Assembly (NCBI GenBank): GCA_024696615.1 | Contig: JAILGS010000090.1 | Location: 26,069 to 90,068 of the forward strand | Reading direction: 5' to 3' | DNA length: 64,000 bases | From: Lachnospiraceae bacterium | GTDB lineage: Bacteria > Bacillota > Clostridia > Lachnospirales > Lachnospiraceae | In this document: positions 2,520-27,152 of the stretch, in pieces | Numbering within the stretch: the first letter of the stretch is position 1 | Layout of the letters: each line of letters begins with the position of its first letter | Position numbers and translations under genes: made by a program | Notes under the pieces: model-generated | The model's database searches: none | Seen by the model: the letters and a program-made list of their open reading frames with translations, nothing else | Told to the model about the DNA's origin: nothing

Positions 2520-2551
2520 ATCCTGAAATTAAATTCTGAAAATCAAATCTG

Positions 2552-2591
2552 TACCCTCTTTACTGGTTAGCCGGTAAGGAGGGTATTTTTT
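2552..2591 (+). terminator. rho-independent terminator after glgP
   Basis: TACCCTCTTTA...TAAGGAGGGTA stem (one mismatch) followed by a T6 run. Confidence 0.7.
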
Positions 2592-2599: not shown

Positions 2600-2631
2600 A
2601 TGCCGAAAACCCTTATCAAATATGGTATAAT
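2600..2631 (+). promoter_or_regulatory. candidate extended -10 promoter of the glycan operon
   Basis: TGgTATAAT at 2623-2631 with a weak -35. Lies between the glgP terminator and the first operon gene. A 7-bp hairpin GATTCAC/GTGAATC (2655-2679) follows in the 5' UTR. Confidence 0.35.
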
Positions 2632-2713: not shown

Positions 2714-3820
2714 ATGAGTAAGACGAATACCTATACAGAAATAATTGATACATTGGCACAGAATGTTATGGAAGACGTATTATCCAGAACCCAGTATCCG
2801 TATGAGAAGATTTCCTTTTTGATCACGGGGGCTTATGGAATGGTGGGCCGCGTGCTGGTGGATCTTTTGATGCGATTAAATGATCGTTACCAACTTCAAA
2901 ATCACATCTATGGTTTCGGAAGAAATGCGCAAAAGGCTGCTAATGCATTTTCTGCATATGAGAATCGAGAGGATTTTACATATATCAATGGGGATATCAC
3001 CCAAGGTCTTCCTGAATTAGGAAATATGACCTACATGATTCATGCGGCAAGTAATACCCATCCTTTGGAATATAGTAAGGATCCCATTGGGACGATTTGG
3101 ACCAATGTGAAGGGATTGGAAAATCTTTTAAACTATGGAATCAGCCATCAGGTAAGGAGATTGGCATTTATTTCCTCCGTAGAGATTTATGGGGAGAATA
3201 CTTCATCGAAGGATTCTTTTAGTGAGAAAGAGATGGGTTATATTGACTGTAATCAGTTAAGGGCCGGATATCCGGAAAGTAAACGGTTAGGGGAGGCTTT
3301 ATGCTGTGCCTATGGCAAGCAGTATCAGTTGGATTTTGTGATTCCAAGGTTGTGTCGTTCTTATGGACCAACGGTGGGAAAGGATGATTCCAAAGCCCTG
3401 TCCCAGTTTATGAACAATGCACTAAAGGGAGAAGATATTGTTTTAAAGAGCGAAGGAAAGCAGTTTTATTCCTATATGGATGTGTTCGATGCAGTGAAGG
3501 GGCTGTGTTATATCTTCTTTTTAGGAGAAGCGGGAGGGGCCTATAATATTGCTGATGAAAGTCAGGATATTACTCTGAAAGACTTAGCAAGTCTTTGCGC
3601 GGAGTATGCAGGAGGACACGTAATCTTTGATCTTCCTAAGGAGGATGAACGTCAGGGATTTTCCAAGGCTACGAAGGCTATTCTAGATAGTGGAAAATTG
3701 AAGAAGCTTGGCTGGAAGCCGGATTATGATATTCGTCAGGGCCTTAGGATTTCTTTGGATCTTCTTGCCAGAAAAGAGATGGAACAAAAAAGGGACGGAA
3801 AAGTGGGGGAACAGGCATGA
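2714..3820 (+). CDS. extended short-chain dehydrogenase/reductase (NAD-dependent epimerase/dehydratase family); possible ketose-phosphate or CDP-ketose reductase
   Basis: 368 aa with the N-terminal Rossmann motif ITGAYGMVGRVL and catalytic YPESK (YxxxK). Its stop overlaps the start of the cytidylyltransferase gene (ATGA at 3817). Confidence 0.75.
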   Translation: MSKTNTYTEIIDTLAQNVMEDVLSRTQYPYEKISFLITGAYGMVGRVLVDLLMRLNDRYQLQNHIYGFGRNAQKAANAFSAYENREDFTYINGDITQGLPELGNMTYMIHAASNTHPLEYSKDPIGTIWTNVKGLENLLNYGISHQVRRLAFISSVEIYGENTSSKDSFSEKEMGYIDCNQLRAGYPESKRLGEALCCAYGKQYQLDFVIPRLCRSYGPTVGKDDSKALSQFMNNALKGEDIVLKSEGKQFYSYMDVFDAVKGLCYIFFLGEAGGAYNIADESQDITLKDLASLCAEYAGGHVIFDLPKEDERQGFSKATKAILDSGKLKKLGWKPDYDIRQGLRISLDLLARKEMEQKRDGKVGEQA

Positions 3821-4533
3821 ATGTTGCTTTAATTATTGCAGGTGGTAGTGGAAAACGGACCAATCAGGATATTCCAAAACAGTTTTTAAATGTAATGGAT
3901 AAACCCATTGTGGTATATACCTTGGAGACCTTTCAGAAGCATCCGGAAATTCAGGGCATTGCAGTGGTCTGTCTCGAAGGCTGGGAACATGTACTGGAGG
4001 CCTATGCAAAACAGTTTGGAATTGCAAAATTGCAGTGGATTGTGAAGGGTGGTGCCAGTGGTCAGGAATCCATTCGCAACGGATTAGAAGCCTTAGAGAA
4101 AGAATTATCCCCGGAGGATGTGGTATTAATTCATGATGGAATTCGTCCCATGGTGGATCCTTCCATTATCACGGATTGTATTGCGAAATGTAAAGAATAT
4201 GGGAATGGAATTACTTCCCTTCCAATTACGGAGCAGATTTTTGAGAAGGATACGGAAGAAACTACCACGAAAGTAATTCCAAGAGAGAAGTTAAAGATTC
4301 TTCAGACTCCTCAGGCATATCGATATGAAACCATTCTTTCCCGATATCGTGAGGGATTTGAGAAGGAGATTGGTATTGGACCATCGGATTATGCGAATAC
4401 CTTGATGGTGAAATTAGGAGAAACCCTTTATTTTGCCAAAGGTTCCTCCAATAATATTAAGATTACCACCAAAGAGGATATTGAAACCTTTAAAGCGATG
4501 TTAACAGTGAATAAGGCTACCTGGTTAAAATAG
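3817..4533 (+). CDS. IspD/TarI-family cytidylyltransferase (CDP-alditol or CDP-alcohol synthase)
   Basis: 238 aa. The N-terminal IIAGGSGKRTNQDIPKQF P-loop-like motif is typical of IspD/TarI. Translationally coupled to the upstream SDR. Confidence 0.8.
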   Translation: MNVALIIAGGSGKRTNQDIPKQFLNVMDKPIVVYTLETFQKHPEIQGIAVVCLEGWEHVLEAYAKQFGIAKLQWIVKGGASGQESIRNGLEALEKELSPEDVVLIHDGIRPMVDPSIITDCIAKCKEYGNGITSLPITEQIFEKDTEETTTKVIPREKLKILQTPQAYRYETILSRYREGFEKEIGIGPSDYANTLMVKLGETLYFAKGSSNNIKITTKEDIETFKAMLTVNKATWLK

Positions 4534-4571
4534 AAAACCTGGGAAAGTTAGAATAGAGAAGAGGGACGAAG

Positions 4572-5453
4572 ATGGAGACGAAGGACGAGGAACTTCTGTT
4601 AGATGGAAAGACATTAAGACAGCTCCAGTTAAATGAATTGGAACTGGTGGTAGAAGTGGATCGAATCTGTAGAAAATATGGAATCCAATATTCCTTGGAT
4701 GGTGGAACCCTGTTGGGGGCGATTCGTCATAAAGGATTTATTCCCTGGGATGATGATGCGGATCTTATTTTTACACGACATGAATATGCGAAATTTTATC
4801 GTGCCTGTAAGAAGGAGTTACAGGGAAGTAAATTCTTCCTCCAGGAGTGGCGAACGGATCCCTATTATCGATGGGGCTATGCGAAATTAAGAAATCGCTC
4901 CACGGAATATATTCGTGCCGGACAGGAGCATATGAAATATCAGACCGGTGTGTGTGTGGATCTCTTCGTTGTGGATCATGTTCCCGATTCCAAGATTCTT
5001 CGTGGATTATTTTATTATTACAATCTGGGAATCCGAAAGATTTTATATTCGGAACTTGGTATGGTTCAGGCTAAGTCCATAGGTTTAAGACGGTGGTATG
5101 GATTATTATATAAAATCCCAAGAAATCTGGTATTTCGTGCAAGAAATGCAGTGGCAGGACTGGTAAATCTCCATTCTACAGAGCTTGTCAGCCACTTGGG
5201 ATATCAATATCCGAAAAGATGCCAATATGGTATGCCCGCCACTTGTTTTGAAGATTATATCGAAATTGAATTTGAAGGGATGAAGTTCATGGGATTTCGT
5301 CAATATGATCTCTATCTTCGCACCCATTATGGGGATTATATGACCCTGCCACCAAAGGAACAGCAGAGGGGCTTTAACAATGCTTCCACCATGGTGTTAT
5401 CCGACATTACGTTAGAAGCGATTCAGGCACAGTATGCTCACAATCATGGCTAA
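4572..5453 (+). CDS. LicD-family phosphotransferase (copy 1)
   Basis: 293 aa with the canonical LicD core LDGGTLLGAIRHKGFIPWDDDADL. Confidence 0.85.
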   Translation: METKDEELLLDGKTLRQLQLNELELVVEVDRICRKYGIQYSLDGGTLLGAIRHKGFIPWDDDADLIFTRHEYAKFYRACKKELQGSKFFLQEWRTDPYYRWGYAKLRNRSTEYIRAGQEHMKYQTGVCVDLFVVDHVPDSKILRGLFYYYNLGIRKILYSELGMVQAKSIGLRRWYGLLYKIPRNLVFRARNAVAGLVNLHSTELVSHLGYQYPKRCQYGMPATCFEDYIEIEFEGMKFMGFRQYDLYLRTHYGDYMTLPPKEQQRGFNNASTMVLSDITLEAIQAQYAHNHG

Positions 5454-5471
5454 GAAGGATGGTATGACATT

Positions 5472-6533
5472 ATGTATTATGTTAATCCAAATCTTGTAGA
5501 TTTACACAGAATTACCTATCAAAATCATCGCAAGGAATACCTTCGTCTGGATTTAAATGAGAATCCCGGAGGTCTTCCACAGGAGTTTATTGATGAGGTA
5601 TTACAGGATATTACTCCGGGATTTGTTTCCCAGTATCCGGAAACTCTGGATTTTGAAAATTGCCTGGCAAAGTTTCATGGAATTCATCGGGAGAACTTGT
5701 GTCTGGTGAATGGTTCCTCCGAAGGCGTTCGTTTTATCATTGAAGCATTTTCTTCTCCGGGAGGAAAGGTTGTGGGAGTTGTTCCTTCCTATGCCATGTA
5801 TCAGGTGTACTGCCTGATGTACGGACGGAATTTTGAGCAGATCCCTTATCGAGAGGATTTAACAATCAGGGCCCAGGATATCATCGACCATCTGAATCAA
5901 GAGGTGGATCTTTTAGTCCTGTTAAATCCTAATAATCCCGTGGGGGATGCCTATAGTAATGAGGACTTTGAGAAGATTTTAGAAGTAACCAGACAATATG
6001 AGATTAATGTACTGGTGGATGAGGCATATCAATATTTTTATAATAATTCCTTTATGAAGTATGCCTTAGACAATCCCCATGTATTTGTTACGAGAACCTT
6101 TAGTAAGCTCTTTTCTTTAGGAAGCCTTCGTCTTGGATATGTGGTGGGACAGCCCGAGGGAATTCATATGATTTCTAATCTATGCACCCCACATAATACC
6201 AATGCATTTGCAATGAAATTCGCTCAAGCGATTTTGGAGCGGGATGGAATGATTGACGAATTGGTGAACAAGCAGCTGACAGGGAAGGCTTATGTGATTG
6301 AAGAATTAAAAAAACATGGTTTTACCGTGAATGCGAAAGAGGGGAATTTTATCTTCGTGAAGCCACGCCACGTGGATGCGGATGAGATTGTGGAGCGGAT
6401 GAAGACGGAGAAGAAGATTTTAATCAAGTCCTATCAGGGAATCGGGTCCCTTGGCAAATGTCTTCGCGTTACTACGGGCGAGAAGATTTATATGGAGCAA
6501 TTTTTAGAGGCTCTTTATGCTATTGATTGTTAG
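5472..6533 (+). CDS. class I/II PLP-dependent enzyme, HisC/CobD-like (aminotransferase or phospho-amino-acid decarboxylase)
   Basis: 353 aa with LDLNENPGGLP near the N-terminus and the PLP-lysine context TRTFSKLFSLGSLRLGY, typical of histidinol-phosphate aminotransferase / threonine-phosphate decarboxylase relatives. Confidence 0.75.
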   Translation: MYYVNPNLVDLHRITYQNHRKEYLRLDLNENPGGLPQEFIDEVLQDITPGFVSQYPETLDFENCLAKFHGIHRENLCLVNGSSEGVRFIIEAFSSPGGKVVGVVPSYAMYQVYCLMYGRNFEQIPYREDLTIRAQDIIDHLNQEVDLLVLLNPNNPVGDAYSNEDFEKILEVTRQYEINVLVDEAYQYFYNNSFMKYALDNPHVFVTRTFSKLFSLGSLRLGYVVGQPEGIHMISNLCTPHNTNAFAMKFAQAILERDGMIDELVNKQLTGKAYVIEELKKHGFTVNAKEGNFIFVKPRHVDADEIVERMKTEKKILIKSYQGIGSLGKCLRVTTGEKIYMEQFLEALYAIDC

Positions 6534-6561
6534 GTGAAGTATATAGATTAGGGGGGATTAC

Positions 6562-7515
6562 ATGGATCACGAAGAATATGATGCATTAGTGGTGGTAACA
6601 CCCAAGGATTATCTTAGAGTGGAACGGACGATGGAGCAATTAGTAAGATATCTTCCCGTCCGAAAAATCATCTATATTGGAAGTGTGGAAGTGGGAGAGT
6701 ATGTATCAGAGTCTCCCTGGAAGGATAATCTTGGATTTATCAATGAGAATGATTTAATACCTTTCTCCCAAGTATACGACTGCATGACAAAGATTATGGA
6801 GCCATTGTTACAGGGGCGGGCATTGCCCCGAGGGATTGTTGGCTGGTATTATCAGCAGTTTCTAAAGATGGAATATGCAAGGGTTTCGGATCATCCATAT
6901 TATATGACCTGGGATGGGGATACCCTTCCTTGTGGTGCATTTTCCATGTTTTCTGCAGATGGACGCCCTTACTTTGATATGAAGCATGAATACTGTGAAG
7001 AGTATTTTGTGACCATGACGAAATTATTTCCGGATCTCCATAAATTACTGGACAAATCTTTTATTTCGGAACATATGCTCTTTTCCTGTGTGTATATGAA
7101 GGCATTAATGGAAGAGCTGGAGGAACGAAAGGACCTTGAGGGGGAACATTTCTGGGAAAAGATTCTTCATTCCATTCGTTTAGAACATATTCAGGAGAGT
7201 TCTTTTAGTGAATTTGAAACTTATGGAACTTATATGATGACGCGGCATCCGGAGGTTTATGAATACCGTAATTGGCATTCCTTCCGTTATGGGGGATATT
7301 TTTTCCGGCCGGAGGAGATGAAAGAACAGGACTATCAGTGGTTAGGAAAGGACTTTTTTGCAATCTCTTTTGAAAAGGGGCATGCAGTTCGGGAGGATTT
7401 TGATCATCTGTTTAATAATCCAGTTTACCAGCAGAAAATGTCTGCCAGACAAATGTTAGAAATTGCCCAGGAAGAGATGGAAGGATATAAGGAAGTCTGG
7501 GAAGAGGGAGAGTAG
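6562..7515 (+). CDS. hypothetical protein, possibly a GT-A-like nucleotide-sugar transferase
   Basis: 317 aa with no hydrophobic spans. The N-terminal beta-alpha start ALVVVTPKDY and a WDGDT acidic motif hint at a nucleotide-diphospho-sugar transferase fold. I recognise no family with confidence. Confidence 0.3.
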   Translation: MDHEEYDALVVVTPKDYLRVERTMEQLVRYLPVRKIIYIGSVEVGEYVSESPWKDNLGFINENDLIPFSQVYDCMTKIMEPLLQGRALPRGIVGWYYQQFLKMEYARVSDHPYYMTWDGDTLPCGAFSMFSADGRPYFDMKHEYCEEYFVTMTKLFPDLHKLLDKSFISEHMLFSCVYMKALMEELEERKDLEGEHFWEKILHSIRLEHIQESSFSEFETYGTYMMTRHPEVYEYRNWHSFRYGGYFFRPEEMKEQDYQWLGKDFFAISFEKGHAVREDFDHLFNNPVYQQKMSARQMLEIAQEEMEGYKEVWEEGE

Positions 7516-7516
7516 C

Positions 7517-9055
7517 ATGGTTAAGATTGAAAAAGAGCGCATTCAAAAGACTTTAGAAAGCGTCATGCGGTTGTTAACACTTCTGCCCCAGGAAGGGATG
7601 GAGGATAGGATTCAGATTTTAACCAAGTGTCAGGAAGCTGTGATCTCTGTTGGGGAGAAACTGGAAGGAATGACCAAAAAGGTGGATCAGGAAGCCATCA
7701 TGCAGTATGGGATCATTCATGAATTGGAAGAGTTTTGCGAAGGGGTATTTTTAGCCTCCCAGCCCGAATGTTTGGAGGAAGAAGAGGCTTTCGTACGTAA
7801 GCTGGTATCCATGAAGGCACTATTAACGAATGTGATCGTGGAACTGAATCAGATCCCACGAACTTATCGGGTGGTATTTTTGCCTTATAAAGCAGCCATG
7901 TGGGATAGTTTAGAAAGCGTGTGGAAGGCATTTGCCAAGGATGAATATTGTGAAACGGTGGTGCTTCCCGTACCTTATTTTGAGATGAATCGAAAGGACC
8001 AACAATGGGATACCCGCTATGATGGCAATGATTTTCCGAAGGATGTTCCTGTGGTTAGTTTTGAGGAGTATTTCTTAGAAGATATGAGACCGGATTTGGC
8101 ATTTACCCATAATCCATTTGATGAACATAATAATGTAACCATGATTCATCCAGCCTTTCATTCCCAGGAATTAAAAAAGCATTGTGGTAAGGTTGTTTAT
8201 ATTCCTTATTATTTTAATTCCGGCTATATTTCAGAAGATTATTTATATCTGCCTTTATTAGAACGGGTGGATTATATTATTGTACAATCCGATAAAGCGA
8301 AGGAAAGTACCAGGTCCATGCCTTATTATGAACGGTGTATTCCACTTGGCTCTCCAAAATGTGACAAGTTAGTGTCCATGATGAAAGAAGCAATCGAACC
8401 ACCGAAGGAGTGGGGAATGGATTTTCATGGAAAGAAGAGTTTACTTTTAAATACCACCATCACGGATTTTTTGGTTCATGGGGAGAAATTATTAAAGAAG
8501 TTACGATTGTTCTTTCAAAAGGTGGCATCCATGGAGGATATTGTTTTGGTATGGAGACCCCATCCTCTTTTAGAAGGAACGATTAAGGCCATGCGCCCAC
8601 AGTTATGGGATGGCTATCAGGAATTACTTGCTTTCTTTAAAGAAAATCAGGTGGGGGTGTTTGATACAACTCCGGATATTTCCAGAGCTGTGGTGGTGAC
8701 GGATGGATATGTGGGATCAGCGTACAGTTCCGTGGTGGATCTATATCAGGTAAGTGGAAAACCGGCCTTTTTATTCCGAAGTGATTGTATTTTTGATATT
8801 TCCCAAAAGCCGGATCGAACTGCGGATTCTGCGTTCCAGGCCTTTCGGTATTTGGAAACAATGCACTATTATGCCGCTTATGAAGATTGGAATTATCTCT
8901 TTGAAGACTTTGTAGAAGACTTAATCCATGATCGCTTGGGAGAAGTGAAAGCGCAGCAGATGATCTATGAAGAGGGGCATCTGAATAACATGGATGGAAC
9001 TGCAGGAGAAAAAATTTATGAGTTTCTTAAGAAGGAATTAGCGCAGGAAACTTAA
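7517..9055 (+). CDS. putative TagB/TagF-like CDP-alcohol (glycerol/ribitol) phosphotransferase
   Basis: 512 aa from ATG 7517, with GGGAG RBS at 7506-7510, 1 nt after the upstream stop. The C-terminal half (RPHPLL..., VTDGYVGSAYSSV...GKP) resembles teichoic-acid-type glycerophosphotransferases. The track start at 7463 overlaps the upstream gene and is rejected. Confidence 0.45.
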   Translation: MVKIEKERIQKTLESVMRLLTLLPQEGMEDRIQILTKCQEAVISVGEKLEGMTKKVDQEAIMQYGIIHELEEFCEGVFLASQPECLEEEEAFVRKLVSMKALLTNVIVELNQIPRTYRVVFLPYKAAMWDSLESVWKAFAKDEYCETVVLPVPYFEMNRKDQQWDTRYDGNDFPKDVPVVSFEEYFLEDMRPDLAFTHNPFDEHNNVTMIHPAFHSQELKKHCGKVVYIPYYFNSGYISEDYLYLPLLERVDYIIVQSDKAKESTRSMPYYERCIPLGSPKCDKLVSMMKEAIEPPKEWGMDFHGKKSLLLNTTITDFLVHGEKLLKKLRLFFQKVASMEDIVLVWRPHPLLEGTIKAMRPQLWDGYQELLAFFKENQVGVFDTTPDISRAVVVTDGYVGSAYSSVVDLYQVSGKPAFLFRSDCIFDISQKPDRTADSAFQAFRYLETMHYYAAYEDWNYLFEDFVEDLIHDRLGEVKAQQMIYEEGHLNNMDGTAGEKIYEFLKKELAQET

Positions 9056-9072
9056 CAAGTGGGGGAAGAACT

Positions 9073-9990
9073 ATGAATCTGGCTACTGCATTAAATCGAA
9101 AATATCTACCATATGCGGGAGTAATGCTTTATTCCTTCTGTGTGAATAATCCAGGGCATGTGGATGCCTATATTCTTCATCATGAACTGGAAGACTTGGA
9201 TTTACTGGCCTTGGATGATGCACTTTCCTGTTTTGATATTACCATTCATTCCATGCAAATCGACCCGGAGGGATTCTGTAATAAGATGTATACGGATAAG
9301 GTATGGACCGTAGAAGCCTATTATCGATTAATGCTCTTAGATATTCTTCCTGAGGATGTGGATCGACTGTTCTATTTTGATGTGGATCTGATCATTAATA
9401 AAAATCTACGTGGACTATACGAACTGGATTTTGAGGGAAAGGATCTGGTGGTATGTGAGGATGATTGTGGAAACTGTACTCCAGAGCGTTATGGACCAAT
9501 GCACCGGAAGATTTTTGGAGCTCCGGAATGGAAGGAATACCGCTATTTTAATTCCGGCGTGATGCTGATGAACATTGAAAAACTTCGAAAAGAATATAGT
9601 TATGAGTATTATATGGATGTAGCTCATAAGGTATGGAATTACCAGATGGAAGCACCGGATCAGGATTTATTAAATTATGTGCATGGAAAACAGGTGAAAT
9701 ATGTTCCTTATGAATTTTATAATTTATTCGGGCGTATTGCTCATTATAGTCAAATTCCTGTATCCATGGTGCGGGAGAAGGTATCCATTATTCACTATAC
9801 CTGGTTAAAGCCATGGGATGGTACAGCAACACACTATCCTTTAGAACAGATTTGGTGGGACTATGCAAGAATGATTAGTTTCTATCCTTCCATTGCACAA
9901 AAATTTATCGAAGATACCATTTCTAACAATGATGCGGATGAAAAGATACGACGGTTAGAGGAGTTATTTCGAACGGGGGATCCAAAATGA
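9073..9990 (+). CDS. family 8 glycosyltransferase (retaining GT-A)
   Basis: 305 aa with GT8-type motifs: YLPYAGVMLYS, YFDVDLII (DxD) and FNSGVMLMN. Confidence 0.8.
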   Translation: MNLATALNRKYLPYAGVMLYSFCVNNPGHVDAYILHHELEDLDLLALDDALSCFDITIHSMQIDPEGFCNKMYTDKVWTVEAYYRLMLLDILPEDVDRLFYFDVDLIINKNLRGLYELDFEGKDLVVCEDDCGNCTPERYGPMHRKIFGAPEWKEYRYFNSGVMLMNIEKLRKEYSYEYYMDVAHKVWNYQMEAPDQDLLNYVHGKQVKYVPYEFYNLFGRIAHYSQIPVSMVREKVSIIHYTWLKPWDGTATHYPLEQIWWDYARMISFYPSIAQKFIEDTISNNDADEKIRRLEELFRTGDPK

Positions 9991-11060: not shown

Positions 11061-11620
11061 TGAATGACTATAAGGGAGCGTCTATGGACCAAAAAATGAT
11101 AAAATCTCTGTATGATGAACTTTTTTTAGAATTTCATGAGGGATGCAGAGTCTGCAATCATATGGATTTCCCGATGGATTGCGATGTGCTAATGATCGCT
11201 GTAGGAATGAAAGGACAGATTGAGTCCTTATTACGTTTTCTGCATGCGCAGGAGACAAAGCCAGGAAGGATCTATATTTTGGTGCAGAAGAATATGATCC
11301 CTGTATTGGAAGATCTTGTGACTCCACAGATTATCCTGCTTCCATGGCAGGGACCATATAATGAAACCTGTGTTCCATATCTTAAGGAAAAGGTGGATGT
11401 GGAGCGCCTGGGGGCTTTGTTCTATCAGGGACGACAGCCCTTGGATTATCGGGATATGAATTTATGGGATATTCTGGAGGCACTTCAAAAAGAAAAAAAG
11501 GAGCCGGGAATTCTTGCCATGCAGGATATTACGGATCATGTGGTGGAATATAAGAATTCTAAGAGGTTACGGGCCGGAATGGAATTATATCGTTGTATGA
11601 ATCAGTATTTGGAAACATAG
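11060..11620 (+). CDS. hypothetical protein
   Basis: ~186 aa, soluble, no motif I recognise. Contains a Cys/His cluster HEGCRVCNH...DCD near the N-terminus. Start is ambiguous (ATG 11060 or ATG 11084). Confidence 0.4.
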   Translation: MNDYKGASMDQKMIKSLYDELFLEFHEGCRVCNHMDFPMDCDVLMIAVGMKGQIESLLRFLHAQETKPGRIYILVQKNMIPVLEDLVTPQIILLPWQGPYNETCVPYLKEKVDVERLGALFYQGRQPLDYRDMNLWDILEALQKEKKEPGILAMQDITDHVVEYKNSKRLRAGMELYRCMNQYLET

Positions 11621-11652
11621 CTTGGCCAAAATGGAAGGAGAGGAAATCATCT

Positions 11653-12747
11653 ATGGAAATCATGCCCAATCGGATGGATCGATTGTACTATCGATATCAG
11701 GAGGAGTTGGAACAGAAAGCATTAGAAATTTTACGGAGTGGATGGTATATCCTTGGCAAGGAAGTATCTCTTTTTGAGGAAGAATTTGCAGCATATACAG
11801 GCAGTAAGTATTGTGTAGGACTTGCAAGTGGCTTGGATGCTTTATGGATTGCCTTTCGCTTACTGGGAATTGGTGCCGGGGATGAGGTAATTGTCCAGGG
11901 AAATACTTATATTGCCAGTGTGATGGGGATTAGTATGAATGGTGCAACTCCCGTGATTGTTGAACCGGATGAATATTATTCTATTAATGTGGAGGAAATT
12001 GAAAAGCATATTACCAAGAAGACCAAGGCTGTTTTGGTAGTTCATCTCTATGGGATGGTAGCACCCATGGACCAGATTGTGGAGTTGTGTAAAAAATATA
12101 ACCTTCGTTTAGTGGAGGATTGTGCGCAGTCCCATGGTGCATGTTATCAAGGAAAAATGACAGGAACCTTTGGAGATATTGGTTGTTTTTCCTTTTATCC
12201 ATCCAAGAACTTAGGAGCCTATGGTGATGGTGGTGCCATTGTGACGAATCATGAGGATTTGGCTCAGGAAGCGAAAGTACTTCGAAATTATGGTAGTGAG
12301 AAGAGATACTATAATAAAGTGGTGGGAACCAATTCTCGTTTGGATGAATTGCAGGCGGGACTTCTTCGAGTAAAATTAAAACATCTGGACGAATTAACCC
12401 TGGAGCGACAGCAAATTGCTCAAGGATATGAGAAGGGATTGAATAAGCTAGAATTTATTCTTCCCAAGGTGCGCCAAAATACGACCTGTGTGTGGCATCA
12501 ATATGTGATCCGTTGTGAGCGAAGGGATGAACTTATGTCCTATCTGAAATCTAAGGGAATTGGAACCATTATACATTATCCGATTCCTCCGCATCTTTCC
12601 GAAGCCTATGCATATTTGGGATTGACGAAAGGGGACTATCCAATCACGGAACACTTTGCGGATACCGTTCTTTCAATTCCAATGTACAATGGAATGACGA
12701 AAGAGGAACAGGATTATATTATAGAACAGTTACAGGGATTTAACTGA
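11653..12747 (+). CDS. DegT/DnrJ/EryC1-family PLP sugar aminotransferase (FdtB/QdtB-like)
   Basis: 364 aa from ATG 11653, with GGAGAGG RBS upstream. Typical motifs GDEVIVQGNTYIAS and FSFYPSKNLGAYGDGG (PLP lysine). Adjacent to an FdtA-type isomerase. Confidence 0.85.
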   Translation: MEIMPNRMDRLYYRYQEELEQKALEILRSGWYILGKEVSLFEEEFAAYTGSKYCVGLASGLDALWIAFRLLGIGAGDEVIVQGNTYIASVMGISMNGATPVIVEPDEYYSINVEEIEKHITKKTKAVLVVHLYGMVAPMDQIVELCKKYNLRLVEDCAQSHGACYQGKMTGTFGDIGCFSFYPSKNLGAYGDGGAIVTNHEDLAQEAKVLRNYGSEKRYYNKVVGTNSRLDELQAGLLRVKLKHLDELTLERQQIAQGYEKGLNKLEFILPKVRQNTTCVWHQYVIRCERRDELMSYLKSKGIGTIIHYPIPPHLSEAYAYLGLTKGDYPITEHFADTVLSIPMYNGMTKEEQDYIIEQLQGFN

Positions 12748-12761
12748 ATTGGGGGAATGGG

Positions 12762-13184
12762 ATGACATTACAGGAAAAATGTACAATTCTTGATTTTAAG
12801 GATTTGGGTGATGAACGAGGAAAATTAGTGGTGATTGAAGGGGGAATGACGATTCCTTTTGAGATTGCCAGAGTTTTTTATATCTATGGCTCGGATGATA
12901 CTGTGGTACGAGGACAACATGCGAATAAAAAATCAGAATTTGTCTTAATTAATGTTGCCGGAAGCAGTAAGGTTCGAATTACCGATGGGAAAGAAGAATT
13001 TATCGTGGAATTGAATCGGCCTATGATGGGGGTATATATTCCCAAAATGATCTGGAAGGACATGTATGATTTTTCTTCGGATTCGGTATTACTTGTACTG
13101 TCCAATACACATTATGATGGGGAAGAGTATTTACGTAATTTCGATGATTATATGGAATATAAAAAGAAATTAGAATCCGAATAA
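12762..13184 (+). CDS. FdtA/QdtA-type sugar 3,4-ketoisomerase (WxcM-like cupin)
   Basis: 140 aa. DERGKLVVIE...ARVFYIY...RGQHANKK matches the small cupin dTDP-4-keto-6-deoxyhexose 3,4-isomerases. Confidence 0.8.
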   Translation: MTLQEKCTILDFKDLGDERGKLVVIEGGMTIPFEIARVFYIYGSDDTVVRGQHANKKSEFVLINVAGSSKVRITDGKEEFIVELNRPMMGVYIPKMIWKDMYDFSSDSVLLVLSNTHYDGEEYLRNFDDYMEYKKKLESE

Positions 13185-13230
13185 GATCCGTAGGATCGAG
13201 GGAATTGAATGCAAAGAATGGAGATAGGAC

Positions 13231-14151
13231 ATGCTTAATTTTTCAGAAGAATTTTTTCAGACCCAGGTTCGGGAAGGATTTGAAGTAAAATCAATGATGA
13301 AAAAGGCCTGGGCGGGCCAATTAGAAGTATTGGAAGAGATTCGAAAAATCTGTGCACGTCATGATCTTACTTGGTTTGCAGATTATGGAACCATGTTAGG
13401 GGCAGTAAGACATAGAGGATTTATTCCCTGGGATGACGATATGGATATTGGAATGACCAGGGATCATTTGAATGCATTTGTACGATATGCCAAGGAAGAA
13501 CTTCCGCAGGGATATAAGATTTTGGCCATGGACTTGGAGCCGGAATATGATTCTCTGATCATTCGTGTGGTGAATGGAACGGAGGTTTCCATGAATTTAG
13601 AACGGTTGGAGAAATACCATGGTTGTCCCTATGTGTTAGGGGTGGATATTTTTCCATATGATTATCTTTCCAGAAATCAGGAAGAGCGGGAACTACATTT
13701 GCAATTAATGGAAATTATTCTCCGGGCGGTGGATACCATCACTGCACCGGAAATCTCCAAAGAAGAAGTGGAGGCGTATTTGTCCCAGGTGGAAGAACTG
13801 ACGGGCTGTACCATCGATCGAAACAAGCCCCTTACGGTGGCTATGATTGGTTTAGCGGAAAAATTGGGAAGTATTTATGGACCGGAAGATGGGGATGAAG
13901 TGACGGGAATTTGGCGGATTATTCTTCAGAAGAATTATTCCTTCCCCAAGGAATGGTTTGCCAAAGAAAATCTGGTGGAGATGCCTTTTGAGAATGTCAC
14001 GGTACCGGTATCAAAGTTTTTTGATCCGATTCTTACACTAAAATACGGTTCGAATTATATGACTCCGAAGATGGTGATGGATCATGATTATCCATTTTAT
14101 AAGGGGCAGGAAGAGATCTTTAAAAATATCTATGGTTATATTCCGGAATAA
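13231..14151 (+). CDS. LicD-family phosphotransferase (copy 2)
   Basis: 306 aa with DYGTMLGAVRHRGFIPWDDDMDI. Clear paralogue of the next gene: shared MMKKAWA near the N-terminus and DHDYPFYKGQEE near the C-terminus. Confidence 0.85.
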   Translation: MLNFSEEFFQTQVREGFEVKSMMKKAWAGQLEVLEEIRKICARHDLTWFADYGTMLGAVRHRGFIPWDDDMDIGMTRDHLNAFVRYAKEELPQGYKILAMDLEPEYDSLIIRVVNGTEVSMNLERLEKYHGCPYVLGVDIFPYDYLSRNQEERELHLQLMEIILRAVDTITAPEISKEEVEAYLSQVEELTGCTIDRNKPLTVAMIGLAEKLGSIYGPEDGDEVTGIWRIILQKNYSFPKEWFAKENLVEMPFENVTVPVSKFFDPILTLKYGSNYMTPKMVMDHDYPFYKGQEEIFKNIYGYIPE

Positions 14152-14168
14152 TTACGAAGAGGGAATGG

Positions 14169-15077
14169 ATGGTTAAGGAAGAATTTTTTCAAGAAGAAGA
14201 ACGAAATGGTTTTGTCATCGAGGGGATGATGAAGAAAGCCTGGGCGGTTGAGATGGAACTTGCGGATTATCTCATCCATCTTTGCCAGGCCTATCATCTT
14301 CGCCTGTATGCTTCCTGGGGAACGTTACTGGGTGCGGTAAGGCACGGAGGATTTATTCCCTGGGATGATGATATGGATTTTGTTATGCCAAGGCAGGACT
14401 ATGAACAATTGGTGCAATTGATTCGGGAAAAAAAAGAAAATGGGACCTTTCCCTATTATTTTAGCTGTCTGGAATTAAATCCGGAGCATACCCAGCCAAG
14501 TGCCACCCTTCTCAATTACCCATCCCTCCCGGTACCTAAGGAAATCCAAGAGCATTATCAGGGATTTCCTTATGTGGCAGGCGTGGATATTAGCGTAATG
14601 AATTATGTGTCCAGGAATCCTGAGGAACATGATCTATACCTGGCCCTTTATAATACCATCTATGATTTGGCGCAGAGATTTCAGGATTTTTGCCAAGAAG
14701 GAACGCTGGAAGAGTATCTACAGCAGGTGGAAAATTTTACTCACACTACTCTGGTGCGGGATGAAACCTTAAAGCATCAGCTATGGTGCCTGGCAGGACG
14801 AGTGGCCGGTCTTGTGCAGGAAGAAGAAGCGGATGCCTACGCTTTGTATGAGCGCTTAGTGCGAGTGGGACGAAAGGAATTCTATCCCAAAGAATGGTAC
14901 GAAAGTGTTCTATGGATGGACTTTGAAACCATGAAAGTCCCGGTCCCTATTGGATATCATGAGGTGTTAACCTGTTATTACGGGGTGGAATATATGACTC
15001 CCAAGCATCTTCCGCCAGGGCATGATTACCCATTTTATAAAGGACAGGAAGAATTTTTACGTACCATTCAAAAATAA
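14169..15077 (+). CDS. LicD-family phosphotransferase (copy 3)
   Basis: 302 aa with SWGTLLGAVRHGGFIPWDDDMDF. Tandem paralogue of 13231-14151. Confidence 0.85.
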   Translation: MVKEEFFQEEERNGFVIEGMMKKAWAVEMELADYLIHLCQAYHLRLYASWGTLLGAVRHGGFIPWDDDMDFVMPRQDYEQLVQLIREKKENGTFPYYFSCLELNPEHTQPSATLLNYPSLPVPKEIQEHYQGFPYVAGVDISVMNYVSRNPEEHDLYLALYNTIYDLAQRFQDFCQEGTLEEYLQQVENFTHTTLVRDETLKHQLWCLAGRVAGLVQEEEADAYALYERLVRVGRKEFYPKEWYESVLWMDFETMKVPVPIGYHEVLTCYYGVEYMTPKHLPPGHDYPFYKGQEEFLRTIQK

Positions 15078-15146
15078 TTGAGTGCTCCCATCCCAGGAGC
15101 GTTTCAAGCCAAGCAGTGATTGACTCACAGGAACGGGAGGATGCCT

Positions 15147-16283
15147 ATGAATAATATCTCGGTCTGTATTATTACGAAAAATGAGGCGGATAATTTAAGA
15201 AAATGCCTAAAATCCATTAAACCCTATGGTTTTGAGATCGTGGTAGTGGATACGGGTTCCACGGATGAAACTAAGGAAGTCATCGATACCTATGCGGATA
15301 TTTCAGGAAATTTTACCTGGTGCAATGATTTTTCTGCAGCCAGAAATTACAGTCTGGGACTTGCAAGCAACGATGCGATTTTAATCCTGGACTCCGATGA
15401 GTGGATCGAGTCCTGCGATGTGGATGGACTGCGGTATTTTATGCAAATTCATCCGGAGTGGGTAGGTCGTATCGAACGCATCAATGACTTGGCGGATGCC
15501 AATAGCAATAAGGCCCATGAACGCATCAGCCGTTTCTTTGATCGAAGATATTATGAATACTATGGACGAATTCATGAGCAGGTTACCCGAAAGACTTTAA
15601 CGGGGGACTATGTTCCCATGCGGGCTTTTGAGGTAAGACAGCGCATCGAAGAAGATCAGAAGCTCCCGGTGGTGGATATTGTCAATGATACCTATGAGAA
15701 TGTGGCAGTGGTGATTGGCCACAGTGGATTTGCAGGAACGAAGGAAAATCGTAGTACCAAAGCCCTGCGAAATATTTCCCTGTTAAAGTTAGATTTGGAC
15801 GAATATGGAGTGGACCCTTATGTGCTCTATCAGCTGGGAAAGAGCTATTATATGCTAAATGACTATGACAAGGCAGCAGAGTATTTCGAGCGGGGATTGG
15901 AATTTGACCTAAATCCTGCCCTGGAATATGTGCAGGATCTGATTGAAACCTACGGCTATGCCCTGTTAAATGGGGGCCGGGGACGGGATATGATCTTTTT
16001 AACGGATCCGGAGGTTTATAACGCATTTGCAGTGACGGCGGATTATGTCTTCCTATGCGGCCTGGCCTATATGAATAGCGAGCGATTTGAAGAAGCTATT
16101 AAGGAATTTGAGAAAGCCACCACCATGAAGATTACCAAGATTGAAGGGTGCAATTCCTATCAGGCCTACTATAATGCCGGGGTGGTGTGCGAATGCTTAG
16201 GGGATCGAAAGCGGGCCCTGCATTATTATGATCTGGCGGGAAGTTTTGCACCAGCTTTAGAAGGAAAGAAACGAATCCAGTAG
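15147..16283 (+). CDS. family 2 glycosyltransferase fused to C-terminal TPR repeats
   Basis: 378 aa from ATG 15147, with GGGAGG at 15135-15140. N-terminal GT2 motifs ISVCIITKNE and ILDSDE (DxD). C-terminal TPR-like repeats LYQLGKSYYMLNDYDKAAEYFERGLEFD, GLAYMNSERFEEAIKEFEKA and YNAGVVCECLGDRKRALHYYDLA. Confidence 0.8.
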   Translation: MNNISVCIITKNEADNLRKCLKSIKPYGFEIVVVDTGSTDETKEVIDTYADISGNFTWCNDFSAARNYSLGLASNDAILILDSDEWIESCDVDGLRYFMQIHPEWVGRIERINDLADANSNKAHERISRFFDRRYYEYYGRIHEQVTRKTLTGDYVPMRAFEVRQRIEEDQKLPVVDIVNDTYENVAVVIGHSGFAGTKENRSTKALRNISLLKLDLDEYGVDPYVLYQLGKSYYMLNDYDKAAEYFERGLEFDLNPALEYVQDLIETYGYALLNGGRGRDMIFLTDPEVYNAFAVTADYVFLCGLAYMNSERFEEAIKEFEKATTMKITKIEGCNSYQAYYNAGVVCECLGDRKRALHYYDLAGSFAPALEGKKRIQ

Positions 16284-16327
16284 GAAAGGGCTACCAGAGG
16301 ATAGCAGGAAACGGGGGAGGATCGACG

Positions 16328-17563
16328 ATGGAGAAGATGAATCAAAATCGCAAGGACAAGGGGCGATTGATCCTTTTTGTAGGGGTTTACGACACCTTGG
16401 ATATCTTCATGTATGAAATACAGAAGGAACTTGAGAGTTTAGGATACGAGACCATGCTCTTTGATTCTTCGCAAATGAATCAGAGTCTCGTAACCCTTTC
16501 GGAATATGTGAAGCGCCCGGTGAAGGCAGCGCTAACCTTTAATAATCTGGGATTTAATATGGAATTAGTGCCGGGGAAAAATCTCTGGGATGAGTTAGGA
16601 ATTGTGATGATCAACATCTTGATGGATCATCCATTTTGCTATAAGAAGGCGTTAGATGCGGCGCCCCGAAACGGAATTGTCCTTTGTCCGGATCGAAAGC
16701 ACATGGCTTATTTAAACCGCTTTTATCCGGGGCTTATGGCTACGGGATTTCTTCCACATGGAGGAAAGTATGAGCCGGGGCAGCCGGTAAAGCCATGGGA
16801 GGAGCGAAAGAAACAGGTGATGTATGCAGGAAATCTCTCCCGGAGTTTTGTGGCCAATATTATGCCGGATCTTTCGAAATTGCACTATTCGGTTGCATGG
16901 GATCTAAAGCAAATGTGTGACGAAGTGGTGGAAGATGTGATCGCGCATCCAAGGAAAACCACGGAGGAAGGCATGGAAGAATGGCTTCTTTCCCATGGAA
17001 TCCACTTAGAGGACGGGGAATTATGCCAGGTGATTGCGGATCTTCACTATATTGACCTTCTGATTGTGTCCCATTATCGGGAAAGGATTGTGCAGGCAGT
17101 GGCCGAAAGTGGACTGGAATTAGATCTATACGGGGCTGGCTGGGAGAATTGTAGTTGGATCCACGCATCCAATGTGCATTATCACGGAAAAGTATCCGCC
17201 TATCAGGTGGTGGAAGAGATGAAGGATAGTAAGGTGATCCTCAGCACCATGACCTGGTTTAAGGATGGAACCCATGACCGGGTATTTAATGGGATGTTGC
17301 AGGGGGCTCTTACGGTGTCGGATTGTTCTGACTATATGGTGGAAGAATTTCAGGGTGGCGCATCCTATGGAGAGGAACATCAGGAGATGATTCTTTTTTC
17401 TCTGGATGAGATGGATACCTTGGGGGAACGCATCCGGGAACTTTTACAGGATGAAAAAAGAGCCAAGGAAGTGGCAATGCGAGGACGGGAGCATGCGATT
17501 CGTGCGCACTCCCTACAAGAAAGAGCCAGGGAACTGGACCGGGATTTACTCAGTGTATTATAG
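16328..17563 (+). CDS. CgeB-like glycosyltransferase-family protein (GT-B C-terminal half)
   Basis: 411 aa. The C-terminal segment ...MTWFKDGTHDRVFNGMLQGALTVSD... is paralogous to the C-terminus of 55266-57092 (...MTWHKNGMTERIANSMANGAICITD...). Confidence 0.5.
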   Translation: MEKMNQNRKDKGRLILFVGVYDTLDIFMYEIQKELESLGYETMLFDSSQMNQSLVTLSEYVKRPVKAALTFNNLGFNMELVPGKNLWDELGIVMINILMDHPFCYKKALDAAPRNGIVLCPDRKHMAYLNRFYPGLMATGFLPHGGKYEPGQPVKPWEERKKQVMYAGNLSRSFVANIMPDLSKLHYSVAWDLKQMCDEVVEDVIAHPRKTTEEGMEEWLLSHGIHLEDGELCQVIADLHYIDLLIVSHYRERIVQAVAESGLELDLYGAGWENCSWIHASNVHYHGKVSAYQVVEEMKDSKVILSTMTWFKDGTHDRVFNGMLQGALTVSDCSDYMVEEFQGGASYGEEHQEMILFSLDEMDTLGERIRELLQDEKRAKEVAMRGREHAIRAHSLQERARELDRDLLSVL

Positions 17564-17610
17564 GAAGGAGTAAACCTTGGTTTTGGAAATTGATAAAGGT
17601 GGAAAAGAAT

Positions 17611-18693
17611 ATGAAATTACTTGTGATCACCCATCAGCTTTCGCGAACGGGGGCTCCCATCGTGTTACTGGATGTAATCCGATATTACCACGAGAAGGGA
17701 ATTGAAATTGATGTTTTGACCATGGAAGAGGGGCCGCTACGGGAAGAATTAGAAGCCATGGGCATTTATGTCCAGGTGCAGGATCGTTTTTTTGCCATTC
17801 GGGAAGTATTTCGGGAAGTGGCTAAGATGTATGATTTTGTGTGGGCCAATACCCTCATCACCTATGAAGCAATTCTTGCCCTACGGGGATGTGATGTACC
17901 GGTAATCTGGTGGCTTCACGAGGGGGAGCAATATTTTGAATATTTTAAAACTGTGATCCCGGATTTTAAAACCTTAGAGTCCAATATCCATCCCTATGCA
18001 GTAAGTCCCTATGTAAGAGAAGTGGTGGAGCGTCGTTATCATATGCAATTGCCGTTACTTCATATCGCTGTGAAAGCATTTGCCAAGGTGCCGGTGGACC
18101 TTAGGGAAAAGGGTTTTGTGGGAAATCCGGATAAAGTGAAGTTTTTAACGGTGGGAACCTATTCCAAGGTGAAGGCTCAGGATGTGCTTTGCAAGGCCAT
18201 TGATCTGCTTCCGGAGGATATTATGAAGCGCACGGAGTTTTATTTTATCGGCAATGAGTCCATGGTGGACGAGGAAATCTATGGTCCCGTCTGTCAGGCG
18301 GTGGAACGGCATTCCAATGTATATAATCTCCATTCCATGAATCGTAATGAGGTGGGGGCTCTTATGCAGGCCTGTGACTGTTTACTGGTTCCCTCCCGGG
18401 TGGATCCTCTGCCCACGGTGGCTGTGGAAATGATGATGGTTCGGGGGCTGGTGTTATGCACGGAGGTGTGTGGCATTGCAAGCTACATGAAGGATGAGGA
18501 AAACGGCCTCACCGTTCCTGTGGAAAGCGTGCTGGAACTCATTAAAAAGATTGAGAAGGTGGTGCATCTTAAACTTTCAAGTCCTCAGGTGATTGCGGAT
18601 ATGAAGCAGAAGGGGTATGAGGTGTATGCCACCTATTTTGCGGAAGATGTGGTGAAACATAAGCTGGAGGAAATCCTTGGGGAATGTATTTAA
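17611..18693 (+). CDS. GT-B (family 4/1-like) glycosyltransferase
   Basis: 360 aa from ATG 17611, with AAAGGTGGA RBS. N-terminal LLVITHQLSRTGAP and C-terminal VPSRVDPLPTVAVEMMMVRGLVLCT...ENGLTVP are typical of GT-B sugar transferases. Confidence 0.75.
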   Translation: MKLLVITHQLSRTGAPIVLLDVIRYYHEKGIEIDVLTMEEGPLREELEAMGIYVQVQDRFFAIREVFREVAKMYDFVWANTLITYEAILALRGCDVPVIWWLHEGEQYFEYFKTVIPDFKTLESNIHPYAVSPYVREVVERRYHMQLPLLHIAVKAFAKVPVDLREKGFVGNPDKVKFLTVGTYSKVKAQDVLCKAIDLLPEDIMKRTEFYFIGNESMVDEEIYGPVCQAVERHSNVYNLHSMNRNEVGALMQACDCLLVPSRVDPLPTVAVEMMMVRGLVLCTEVCGIASYMKDEENGLTVPVESVLELIKKIEKVVHLKLSSPQVIADMKQKGYEVYATYFAEDVVKHKLEEILGECI

Positions 18694-27130: not shown

Positions 27131-27152
27131 AAATGTAAGGAGCGAGAATAAC

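Follow-up and report, generated by a model that had tools for sequence, protein, structure and literature searches.

Organization of the operon

The 64,000-nucleotide stretch of DNA analyzed here (hereafter the window), part of a metagenome-assembled genome of a gut or rumen bacterium of the Lachnospiraceae, carries, between glgP and eda (18813–19454), sixteen consecutive plus-strand open reading frames (ORFs; g01 to g16, positions 2714–18693). They encode predicted glycosyltransferases (GTs), phosphotransferases and enzymes of donor synthesis (Table 1), and probably make up the bulk of a flagellar glycosylation island, one that is located away from the flagellin genes in this genome. The first-pass annotation, which was made from the letters of the sequence, had described a tightly packed block with gaps of at most ~70 nucleotides (nt). 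This was borne out, as the largest gap is 63 nt with the most plausible starts. Two of the three stop/start overlaps that it listed, of 4 nt each, are found at 3817–3820 (g01/g02) and at 9987–9990 (start of g08). The third, at 11057–11060 (g08/g09), exists only if g09 uses a TTG start, and an ATG at 11084 is equally possible.

The boundaries proposed for the block fared unequally. The upstream one, the terminator of glgP, was recovered as a stem followed by a T run. However, the downstream one, an independently promoted eda, was not confirmed: neither a terminator nor a plus-strand promoter was found when the interval between g16 and eda was scanned. Upstream of g01, a candidate extended −10 element was recognized by its match to the consensus; the two-hexamer promoter scan did not report it. 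A sigma-28 promoter was considered in the same region and rejected: the sequence GACGATAT (2633–2640) fits the −10 consensus at 7 of 8 positions, but TAAA is absent at the proper spacing, as judged by eye.

The operon encodes soluble proteins

The hydropathy of all 16 products was analyzed by the Kyte-Doolittle method, and the mean value was below 1.6 in every 19-residue window. The same test detected its positive controls, namely the protein of 716 amino acids (aa) encoded at 22169–24319 (~14 segments) and the proteins encoded at 19644 and 20333 (one segment each). The Pfam searches agreed with this result: among the 16 products there is no priming transferase of the TagO, WecA or WbaP type, no Wzx, no Wzy, no TagGH or other ABC permease, and no LCP ligase. 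The claim that the block encodes no multi-span, export or priming product was therefore upheld. The operon products are soluble, and the operon is devoid of lipid-carrier priming, flippase, polymerase and exporter functions. With soluble enzymes only, assembly of the glycan would take place in the cytoplasm and directly on the protein.

g14 is related to the flagellin glycosyltransferase GmaR

The product of g14 combines a GT2 catalytic domain with tetratricopeptide repeats (TPR). Its best natural match in the PDB is GmaR (22ao), which we take to be the flagellin O-GlcNAc transferase of Listeria. The E-value was 1.6e-20 with the single sequence and 2.3e-42 with a profile of 30 sequences, for a comparison that covers the N-terminal ~190 residues. 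The peptide S-glycosyltransferase SunS ranks after GmaR among the matches. Flagellin-directed GTs are recognized as Maf proteins or as GTs with TPR; g14 is of the latter kind, with an intact DSDE motif, TPR and homology to GmaR. A GT2 domain together with TPR has served as the criterion for flagellin glycosyltransferases in the islands of Clostridium (C. butyricum, C. sporogenes and others; PMC13317340). Taken as a whole, these features make g14 a candidate for the O-glycosyltransferase that initiates flagellin modification.

The genomic position of the g14 relatives points in the same direction. In Lachnospira-like genomes, flagellin genes are directly followed by its orthologues, which have 51–59% identity. 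In a set of 5.8 billion proteins, the closest homologues are 56–59% identical to g14, and nothing is nearer than ~60%. Both contigs that encode these closest homologues have the same succession of genes: flagellin, FliW, CsrA, FlaG, FliD, FliS, FlgN, flagellin, one or more GTs, a CgeB-like gene and the GT2-TPR gene. They then continue with more GTs, a LicD gene, a cytidylyltransferase-oxidoreductase and an aminotransferase.

Many islands of Lachnospiraceae (L026, L039, L041, L043, L062, L080 and others) contain three to six tandem GT2-TPR paralogues, 33–44% identical to g14. They recall the multiple Maf paralogues of other bacteria, which differ in site or donor specificity.

Homologues of the operon genes are linked to flagellin genes in related genomes

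Scanning of one genome per species gave 79 GT2-TPR loci (these and other loci are referred to by L numbers), nearly all from Lachnospiraceae and including the genera Lachnospira, Roseburia, Eubacterium, Butyrivibrio and Anaerocolumna. For the gene census of these loci, sequences of a single relative served as tblastn queries; many of the 79 loci are incomplete. Core filament genes are found no more than 10 kb away from the GT2-TPR gene at 30 of the 79 loci; this number rises to 50 if a short FliD-like gene is also accepted as a marker, and CgeB/DUF3880-type genes occur within the same distance at 47. By a rough estimate, which was not computed, a random gene is expected to lie within 10 kb of a flagellin locus in a few per cent of cases. 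Of the six most similar loci, five have flagellin directly upstream, and the sixth ends 1.2 kb upstream. Adjacency to flagellin or other filament genes, which is common to these five closest loci and to the 30 counted above, is lacking for the operon in the window.

The closest orthologues of g14, together with homologues of at least six other operon genes, are found inside flagellin/FliD/FliS/FlaG loci of related Lachnospiraceae. The operon-gene homologues are thus linked to flagellin genes in related genomes. The idea of the first-pass annotation that the operon serves the cytoplasmic glycosylation of flagellin is supported by this position and by the homology between g14 and GmaR. Synteny of glgP or eda with these loci was judged uninformative, a 40% identical GlgP being present near two GT2-TPR loci only.

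One relative is particularly instructive. On a contig of GCA_051877855.1 (JBJEJH010000061.1), locus L084 continues the flagellin island of L001, and this relative therefore has one island of ~46 kb adjoining flagellin. L084 holds homologues of g12 (61% identity), g05 (70%) and g06 (55%), another LicD gene, and two copies of g15 (41% and 46%), the second of which is fused to a GT4 domain 28% identical to g16. It also contains homologues of two CgeB-like genes found elsewhere in the window, those for the 608-aa (34%) and 379-aa (51%) proteins. The equivalent content in the window is distributed over two blocks, the operon and the region 55266–61833.

Two further features of L084 (2425–5089 and 19106–21487) were noted. 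The GT4-CgeB fusion (793 aa) corresponds to g16 plus g15 of the window with the order swapped, and an IS66-family element is present inside the glycosylation island.

Predicted enzymes of donor synthesis, transfer and chain extension

Domains were assigned to the 16 products by profile searches against Pfam and NCBIfam. These searches confirmed most of the earlier assignments, namely five GTs (GT8, two GT4, GT2-TPR and CgeB-like), three LicD proteins, the pair formed by a cytidylyltransferase and an SDR enzyme, a HisC/CobD-like pyridoxal phosphate (PLP) enzyme, and the FdtA/DegT pair. The two proteins previously called orphans turned out differently: g05 is a DUF6492 protein, while g09 belongs to a real but rare family that has no Pfam or NCBIfam match. 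Catalytic motifs are conserved in the translations, with DSDE in the GT2 domain, DVD in GT8, WDDD in all three LicD proteins and WDGDT in the DUF6492 protein. No HAD/PSP domain and no methyltransferase domain were detected by Pfam in the 16 products. Of the lic pathway, LicD domains only are represented among them, as there is no choline kinase and no transporter, and the cytidylyltransferase is of the IspD type.

The first four genes constitute a putative module for the synthesis and transfer of an activated donor. g01 is a candidate reductase acting on a CDP- or NDP-linked keto intermediate, and homologues of 46–50% identity adjoin the GT2-TPR genes of L066, L069 and L071. Its NCBIfam matches all fall well short of the respective cut-offs. 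We rejected g01 as the missing dTDP-glucose 4,6-dehydratase: its score with the RmlB model is 86 bits against a cut-off of 365, and the catalytic Asp-Glu is replaced by Val-Glu. g02 scores under the cut-offs of both the ispD and the ribitol-5-phosphate cytidylyltransferase models. The same is true of g04 with hisC (237 bits, cut-off 277) and CobD (146 bits, cut-off 291), and of g10, the DegT-type aminotransferase, with every specific NCBIfam model. By its family relationships, g04 is a candidate producer of an amino-alcohol phosphate. In flagellin island L005, a homologue of g04 with 76% identity is flanked by two LicD genes.

This type of module (LicD, cytidylyltransferase, oxidoreductase and aminotransferase) recurs in the flagellin islands of relatives, where other protein families are used. 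Its recurrence suggests the synthesis of a CDP-activated aminated polyol or amino-alcohol phosphate. The clustering of LicD with the three partners is seen repeatedly (L001, 14998–18582; L003, 16862–20234; window, 2714–6533). In the relatives, a TagD-like cytidylyltransferase fused to a GFO/IDH/MocA domain is accompanied by a class V aminotransferase; the window has IspD, SDR and class I/II enzymes. That the partner families differ between genomes suggests convergent routes to a similar CDP-activated donor.

All three LicD proteins have homologues in flagellin islands. Those of g03 (34–47% identity) are in L008, L009, L014 and L037 (Anaerocolumna xylanovorans DSM 12503), those of g12 (61%) in L009/L023 (L023 being Lachnospira rogosae CLA-AA-H255) and in L084, and those of g13 (42–47%) in L001, L005 and L006. 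Among the extension enzymes, the GT8 protein g07 has a counterpart of 43% identity in flagellin island L003, and g15 has homologues in 23 of the 79 loci.

g05, g06 and g09

No match to g05 was found among PDB sequences by sequence or profile search. The WDGDT motif of this protein is invariant. The AlphaFold2 (AF2) model of g05 has a pLDDT of 81, and its top Foldseek match is CpsY (8j2n; E-value 1.6e-6, TM-scores 0.51/0.60), an exopolysaccharide phosphotransferase of Mycobacterium tuberculosis. The next matches are glycogenin-type GT8 enzymes, with similar scores, and the human GlcNAc-1-phosphotransferase (E-value 2e-3). These structural matches indicate a GT-A-like enzyme, and g05 may be a Stealth-like sugar-1-phosphate transferase. 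In L084, the g05 homologue adjoins that of g06. Another homologue, of 55% identity, belongs to the flagellin/Maf island L086; its neighbours are CgeB-like and Maf (MptE-like) genes, and the distance to a flagellin gene is 9 kb.

The description of g06 as TagF-like was sustained by its predicted fold and through its homologues, but not by a family match of its own. No Pfam match was obtained (PF04464 is absent even at E ≤5), nor any in NCBIfam, and comparison with PDB sequences gave nothing with either the single sequence or a profile. PF04464 was found in g06 homologues of 50–55% identity, one of them annotated as belonging to the CDP-glycerol glycerophosphotransferase family; the match is weak for the homologue of L084 (55%). 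With the AF2 model (pLDDT 91), Foldseek retrieved UDP-GlcNAc 2-epimerases (E-value 2e-9) and TagF (3l7m; E-value 1.8e-8), the latter with the highest query TM-score. g06 is a candidate TagF/FtaD-like phosphotransferase using a CDP donor. Its homologues occur at nine GT2-TPR loci, together with LicD at eight and with flagellar genes at six of them. Counting the three LicD proteins, g06 and g05, the operon would encode up to five candidate phosphodiester-forming enzymes.

The family of g09 comprises 19 representative clusters among 1.84 billion proteins, all of ~170–185 aa, and no relative was found by a metagenome scan.

The second block and its surroundings in the window

The second block consists of three CgeB-like/DUF3880 glycosyltransferase genes, followed by aroD on the minus strand and by a gene for a short FliD-like protein. 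The CgeB-like trio is 32–51% identical to CgeB-like genes beside GT2-TPR or flagellin genes in L001–L006 and L084, and homologues are present at 47 of the 79 loci. The FliD-like gene noticed by the first-pass annotation is indeed there, with a FliD_C match above the cut-off; the protein reaches 44 bits with PRK07737, for which the cut-off is 444. Homologues of the short FliD-like gene occur at 31 of the 79 GT2-TPR loci. Some islands with the short gene (L039, L041, L083) also encode a canonical FliD of ~757 aa. The short FliD-like protein therefore looks like a conserved paralogue tied to glycosylation islands.

Several other genes of the window are worth recording. The 716-aa protein has, besides its ~14 hydrophobic segments, a soluble C-terminal region and belongs to no Pfam or NCBIfam family; its gene directly follows an AGE-family (cellobiose 2-epimerase-like) gene and precedes glmM and galE. 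It was considered as a FliD and rejected, being a polytopic membrane protein with no FliD domain; it could be an uncharacterized membrane glycosyltransferase or polymerase. At 19644–20944, two adjacent genes encode acidic- and tyrosine-rich proteins (229 and 203 aa) with one hydrophobic segment each, for which neither a family match nor significant mutual similarity was found. A GlmU-like gene (27006–27902) matches only the N-terminal uridylyltransferase half of the profile (positions 2–239 of 447). It directly precedes pth and mfd, which leaves no space for the acetyltransferase domain. Directly after mfd, a gene for a GGDEF diguanylate cyclase (32082–33587, 501 aa) may be relevant to motility control; no link to the operon is seen here.

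Table 1. Predicted features of the operon, its upstream region and the second block, with the supporting evidence.
Feature	Position	Strand	Length (aa)	Support
Intrinsic terminator of glgP, upstream boundary of the operon	2551–2586	+		16-pair stem then T run
Candidate extended −10 (TGGTATAAT), TGnTATAAT-type, ~85 nt 5′ of g01	2623–2631	+		consensus match only
g01, extended SDR (epimerase/dehydratase family)	2714–3820	+	368	PF01370 3.8e-37
g02, IspD/TarI-type cytidylyltransferase	3817–4533	+	238	PF01128 8.6e-39
g03, LicD-family phosphotransferase 1	4572–5453	+	293	PF04991 1.9e-37
g04, HisC/CobD-like class I/II PLP enzyme	5472–6533	+	353	PF00155 2.5e-44
g05, DUF6492 protein, GT-A-like fold	6562–7515	+	317	PF20102 1.1e-6
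g06, GT-B-fold protein with N-terminal helical domain	7517–9055	+	512	AF2 model, homologues
g07, GT8 glycosyltransferase	9073–9990	+	305	PF01501 4.5e-35
g08, GT4 (GT-B) glycosyltransferase	9987–11060	+	357	PF00534 5.7e-28, PF13439
g09, small protein of rare family (from ATG; alternative TTG at 11057)	11084–11620	+	178	
g10, DegT/DnrJ/EryC1-type sugar aminotransferase	11653–12747	+	364	PF01041 3.7e-114
g11, FdtA/WxcM-like 3,4-ketoisomerase	12762–13184	+	140	PF05523 4.8e-44
g12, LicD-family phosphotransferase 2	13231–14151	+	306	PF04991 1.2e-30
g13, LicD-family phosphotransferase 3	14169–15077	+	302	PF04991 2.9e-32
g14, GT2 catalytic domain with C-terminal TPR repeats	15147–16283	+	378	PF00535 2e-18, TPR families
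g15, Glyco_trans_1_2 (CgeB-like) glycosyltransferase	16328–17563	+	411	PF13524 2.4e-17
g16, GT4 (GT-B) glycosyltransferase	17611–18693	+	360	PF00534 7.4e-22, PF16994
Three CgeB-like/DUF3880 glycosyltransferase genes	55266–59412	+	608, 379, 388	PF13524, PF12996
Short FliD-like protein	60562–61833	+	423	FliD_C 2.1e-8 (above cut-off), FliD_N 8e-4 (below)

Discussion

A probable flagellar glycosylation pathway detached from the flagellin genes

We give a probability of about 0.75 to the reading that the operon represents most of a flagellar glycosylation island located away from the flagellin genes in this genome. We infer the substrate in this organism, the order of the steps, the donor chemistry and the glycan structure as follows. 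The glycan would be built on flagellin before its export through the flagellar type III system, a route that needs no lipid carrier, flippase, polymerase or ABC exporter. g14 would bind flagellin through its TPR and attach the first sugar to Ser/Thr, like the related GmaR; TPR domains recognize the substrate in FlmG and Maf-1 (PMC7591256; PMC13317340). The GT8 enzyme, both GT4 enzymes and the CgeB-like g15 would extend the chain, and the CgeB-like trio at 55–59 kb may join them. FdtA and DegT would supply a dTDP-3-amino-3,6-dideoxyhexose from dTDP-4-keto-6-deoxyglucose that originates elsewhere. Synthesis of at least one CDP-activated polyol phosphate or amino-alcohol phosphate would fall to the SDR, the IspD-type cytidylyltransferase and the HisC-like enzyme. 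A HisC-like enzyme, Cj1437, is known to transaminate dihydroxyacetone phosphate to serinol phosphate (PMC12096443). Finally, the three LicD enzymes and g06 would transfer the CDP-activated units as phosphodiester-linked substituents, and g05 may add a sugar-1-phosphate.

Several observations weigh against this interpretation. The 64-kb window contains no flagellin, FliS, FlaG or canonical FliD gene, and that the organism is flagellated is deduced solely from the short FliD-like gene and from its relatives. At 29 of the 79 GT2-TPR loci, many of them incomplete, there is no flagellar marker within 10 kb. The region 5′ of g01, as read from consensus sequences, resembles a housekeeping extended −10 promoter and not a sigma-28 promoter. 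By tblastn, none of the 79 related loci encodes a homologue of g11 (FdtA) or of g09, and the RmlA and RmlB genes for the dTDP-sugar precursor are absent from the operon. The NCBIfam matches of the operon products are, moreover, all under the family cut-offs, so that none of them is a recognized equivalog; the enzyme functions are predicted at the level of family or fold and not from a specific equivalog model.

These observations leave room for other readings, one of which is the synthesis of a cell-wall glycopolymer. The product would either resemble teichoic acid or be a capsular or secondary wall polysaccharide; it would be assembled on undecaprenyl phosphate, with the genes for priming, export and ligation elsewhere. 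LicD, the TagF-like protein, IspD with a reductase, GT4, GT8 and FdtA/DegT are indeed classic enzymes of wall polymers or O-antigens, and flagellin genes do not adjoin the operon. The 716-aa membrane protein is encoded 3.5 kb downstream, near glmM, galE and the GlmU-like gene; however, eda and three other genes stand between it and the operon, and it has no homologue in the 79 loci. The absence of a membrane segment from all 16 products and of TagO/WecA/WbaP-type, Wzx, Wzy, TagGH and LCP domains from the operon argues against such a polymer, as does the relationship to GmaR of a GT with a protein-binding TPR domain. Seven operon genes, furthermore, have homologues inside flagellin loci. We consider a wall polymer unlikely because of this flagellar context, the GmaR-like TPR enzyme and the lack of membrane proteins. 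A small chance is left to the cytoplasmic glycosylation of a protein other than flagellin, be it the short FliD-like protein, some other protein of the surface or secreted, or a component of the spore coat that the mother cell would modify, as happens with the crust of Bacillus subtilis. Flagellin genes are not linked to the operon, and at 20 of the 79 GT2-TPR loci the short FliD-like gene occurs while flagellin is missing from the 10 kb around. The Glyco_trans_1_2 family owes its name to CgeB, a spore-maturation protein, and the spore-crust glycan genes of B. subtilis (sps, cge) include no export genes and encode the TagF-like SpsB and the DegT-type SpsC. Yet the closest orthologues of g14 are immediately beside flagellin genes, and the CgeB-like homologues, where found, are in flagellar and not in sporulation contexts. 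No sporulation gene lies near the operon either, and no sigma-E/sigma-K type element was seen upstream by eye.

The operon might also be what is left, silent or in decay, of a flagellar glycosylation island whose host lineage is no longer motile. In favour of this, the island content occupies two separate blocks surrounded by housekeeping genes (glgP and eda; truA, aroD and secE), and the window has no flagellin gene. This is highly improbable: the 16 ORFs are intact and full-length in comparison with their homologues, the catalytic motifs (DSDE, DVD, WDDD three times, WDGDT) are kept, and the tight spacing with stop/start overlaps is typical of a working operon. A flagellar island located away from flagellin remains the preferred reading.

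Comparison with known systems

GmaR of Listeria monocytogenes is the best natural PDB match of the putative initiating enzyme, its GT2 catalytic domain being homologous to that of g14. Its C-terminal region is likewise made of helical repeats, and its action on flagellin is cytoplasmic; it adds a single GlcNAc and acts also as the anti-repressor of MogR. By contrast, g14 lies in a pathway operon of 16 genes.

The type A system of Clostridioides difficile (CD0240 and FtaABCD/CD0241–0244) is likewise a cytoplasmic O-glycosylation of flagellin, as proposed here. There, a nucleotidyltransferase makes a CDP-activated small molecule, which FtaD adds as a phosphodiester (PMC10714395; bioRxiv 10.64898/2026.02.12.704994). 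FtaD (CD0244), a TagF-like enzyme, moves the phospho-substituent from the CDP donor onto the O-GlcNAc of flagellin, a precedent that strengthens the phosphodiester substituent suggested by the first-pass annotation (bioRxiv 10.64898/2026.02.12.704994). FtaD is described as resembling both TagF and UDP-GlcNAc 2-epimerases (PMC10714395), and the predicted fold of g06 has the same two matches. Differences are nevertheless clear. The C. difficile system includes FtaA (a PSP-like phosphotransferase) and FtaC (a SAM methyltransferase), both missing from the operon; the operon has an IspD-type cytidylyltransferase and no fliC alongside. It adds three LicD proteins, a candidate of the Stealth-like type, the 3-amino-sugar pair and a total of four or five GTs for extension. 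With the extra LicD proteins, GTs and 3-amino-sugar enzymes, its glycan should be much larger than GlcNAc-P-N-methyl-Thr.

The islands of Clostridium resemble the operon in their hypervariable sets of soluble GTs and nucleotide-sugar enzymes, with predicted dideoxy and amino sugars; they are located between flagellin genes and mostly contain Maf and nonulosonic-acid pathways (PMC13317340). The operon differs from them in that it has no Maf or Pse/Leg genes, is unlinked from flagellin and is dominated by predicted phosphodiester-forming enzymes. There are also the flagellin islands of Lachnospiraceae themselves (for example in GCA_051877855.1 and Lachnospira rogosae CLA-AA-H255), which encode orthologous GT2-TPR, LicD, DUF6492, g06, CgeB-like, GT8 and HisC-like proteins of 41–76% identity. 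Each forms one continuous island with the genes for flagellin, FliD and FliS. Neither FdtA nor g09 is present in them, and their cytidylyltransferases, oxidoreductases and aminotransferases come from different families. No experimental characterization of these islands was found in the literature searched.

Other pathways contain some of these enzyme families. An IspD-type enzyme with a reductase, LicD and the TagF-like fold are common to the operon and to wall teichoic acid synthesis (TagO, TagA, TagB, TagF, TagGH; TarIJ; pneumococcal LicD). The operon, however, has no priming transferase, ABC exporter, LCP ligase or membrane protein, and the context of its homologues is flagellar. LicD is accompanied by LicA, LicB and LicC in the pneumococcal-type lic pathway and stands without them here. 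As to the spore crust of B. subtilis (cge/sps), a CgeB-type PF13524 domain is present in g15, whose homologues have a flagellar context where found. In the mammalian alpha-dystroglycan pathway (ISPD, FKTN, FKRP), an IspD-family enzyme makes a CDP-polyol and LicD-family enzymes add phosphodiester units to a protein O-glycan; this pathway is eukaryotic, operates in the Golgi lumen and uses proteins only distantly related to those of the operon.

The latter comparison leads to a wider proposal, which we advance tentatively and regard as possible rather than probable. Lachnospiraceae flagellins may carry a teichoic-acid-like, phosphodiester-rich decoration, added in the cytoplasm by LicD, TagF/FtaD-like and Stealth-like transferases, the pathway being encoded, in this genome, by an operon detached from the flagellar locus. 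CDP or UDP donors would provide the units of this decoration, namely polyol phosphate, amino-alcohol phosphate and perhaps sugar-1-phosphate. The pathway would be the bacterial counterpart of the ISPD-fukutin-FKRP ribitol-phosphate pathway acting on dystroglycan.

Part of this picture is already known, namely the existence of flagellar glycosylation islands with GT2-TPR enzymes (PMC13317340) and the action of a TagF-like enzyme on the flagellin glycan of C. difficile. From the gene content, what appears to be new is the detachment from the flagellar locus, the set of up to five candidate phosphodiester-forming enzymes, and the presence of a 3-amino-sugar pair, which the related islands lack. 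In the full-text literature, we found nothing on LicD in flagellin glycosylation nor on the flagellin glycans of Lachnospiraceae. The C. difficile preprint merely mentions larger fta-like clusters in some Lachnospiraceae (bioRxiv 10.64898/2026.02.12.704994), and a survey that annotates Lachnospiraceae motility loci makes no mention of glycosylation (PMC3720852). The statement that the operon is not a described flagellin glycosylation island thus holds for the literature searched, but needs to be tempered: the same modules are common in unstudied islands of Lachnospiraceae, and the operon is therefore not a one-off.

Implications for commensal flagellins

Flagellins of Lachnospiraceae are major antigens of the gut microbiota and ligands of TLR5. 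If the proposal is correct, many commensal flagellins would bear large, charged, phosphodiester-linked glycans, which would alter their recognition by antibodies, lectins and phages, and possibly by TLR5. A protein-bound glycan in the cytoplasm would be a class of acceptor new to LicD-family and Stealth-like enzymes, and the logic of post-glycosylation modification from a CDP donor, as in C. difficile FtaD, would be extended. Finally, flagellar glycosylation genes can sit far from flagellin, and surveys restricted to the regions between flagellin genes will miss such genes.

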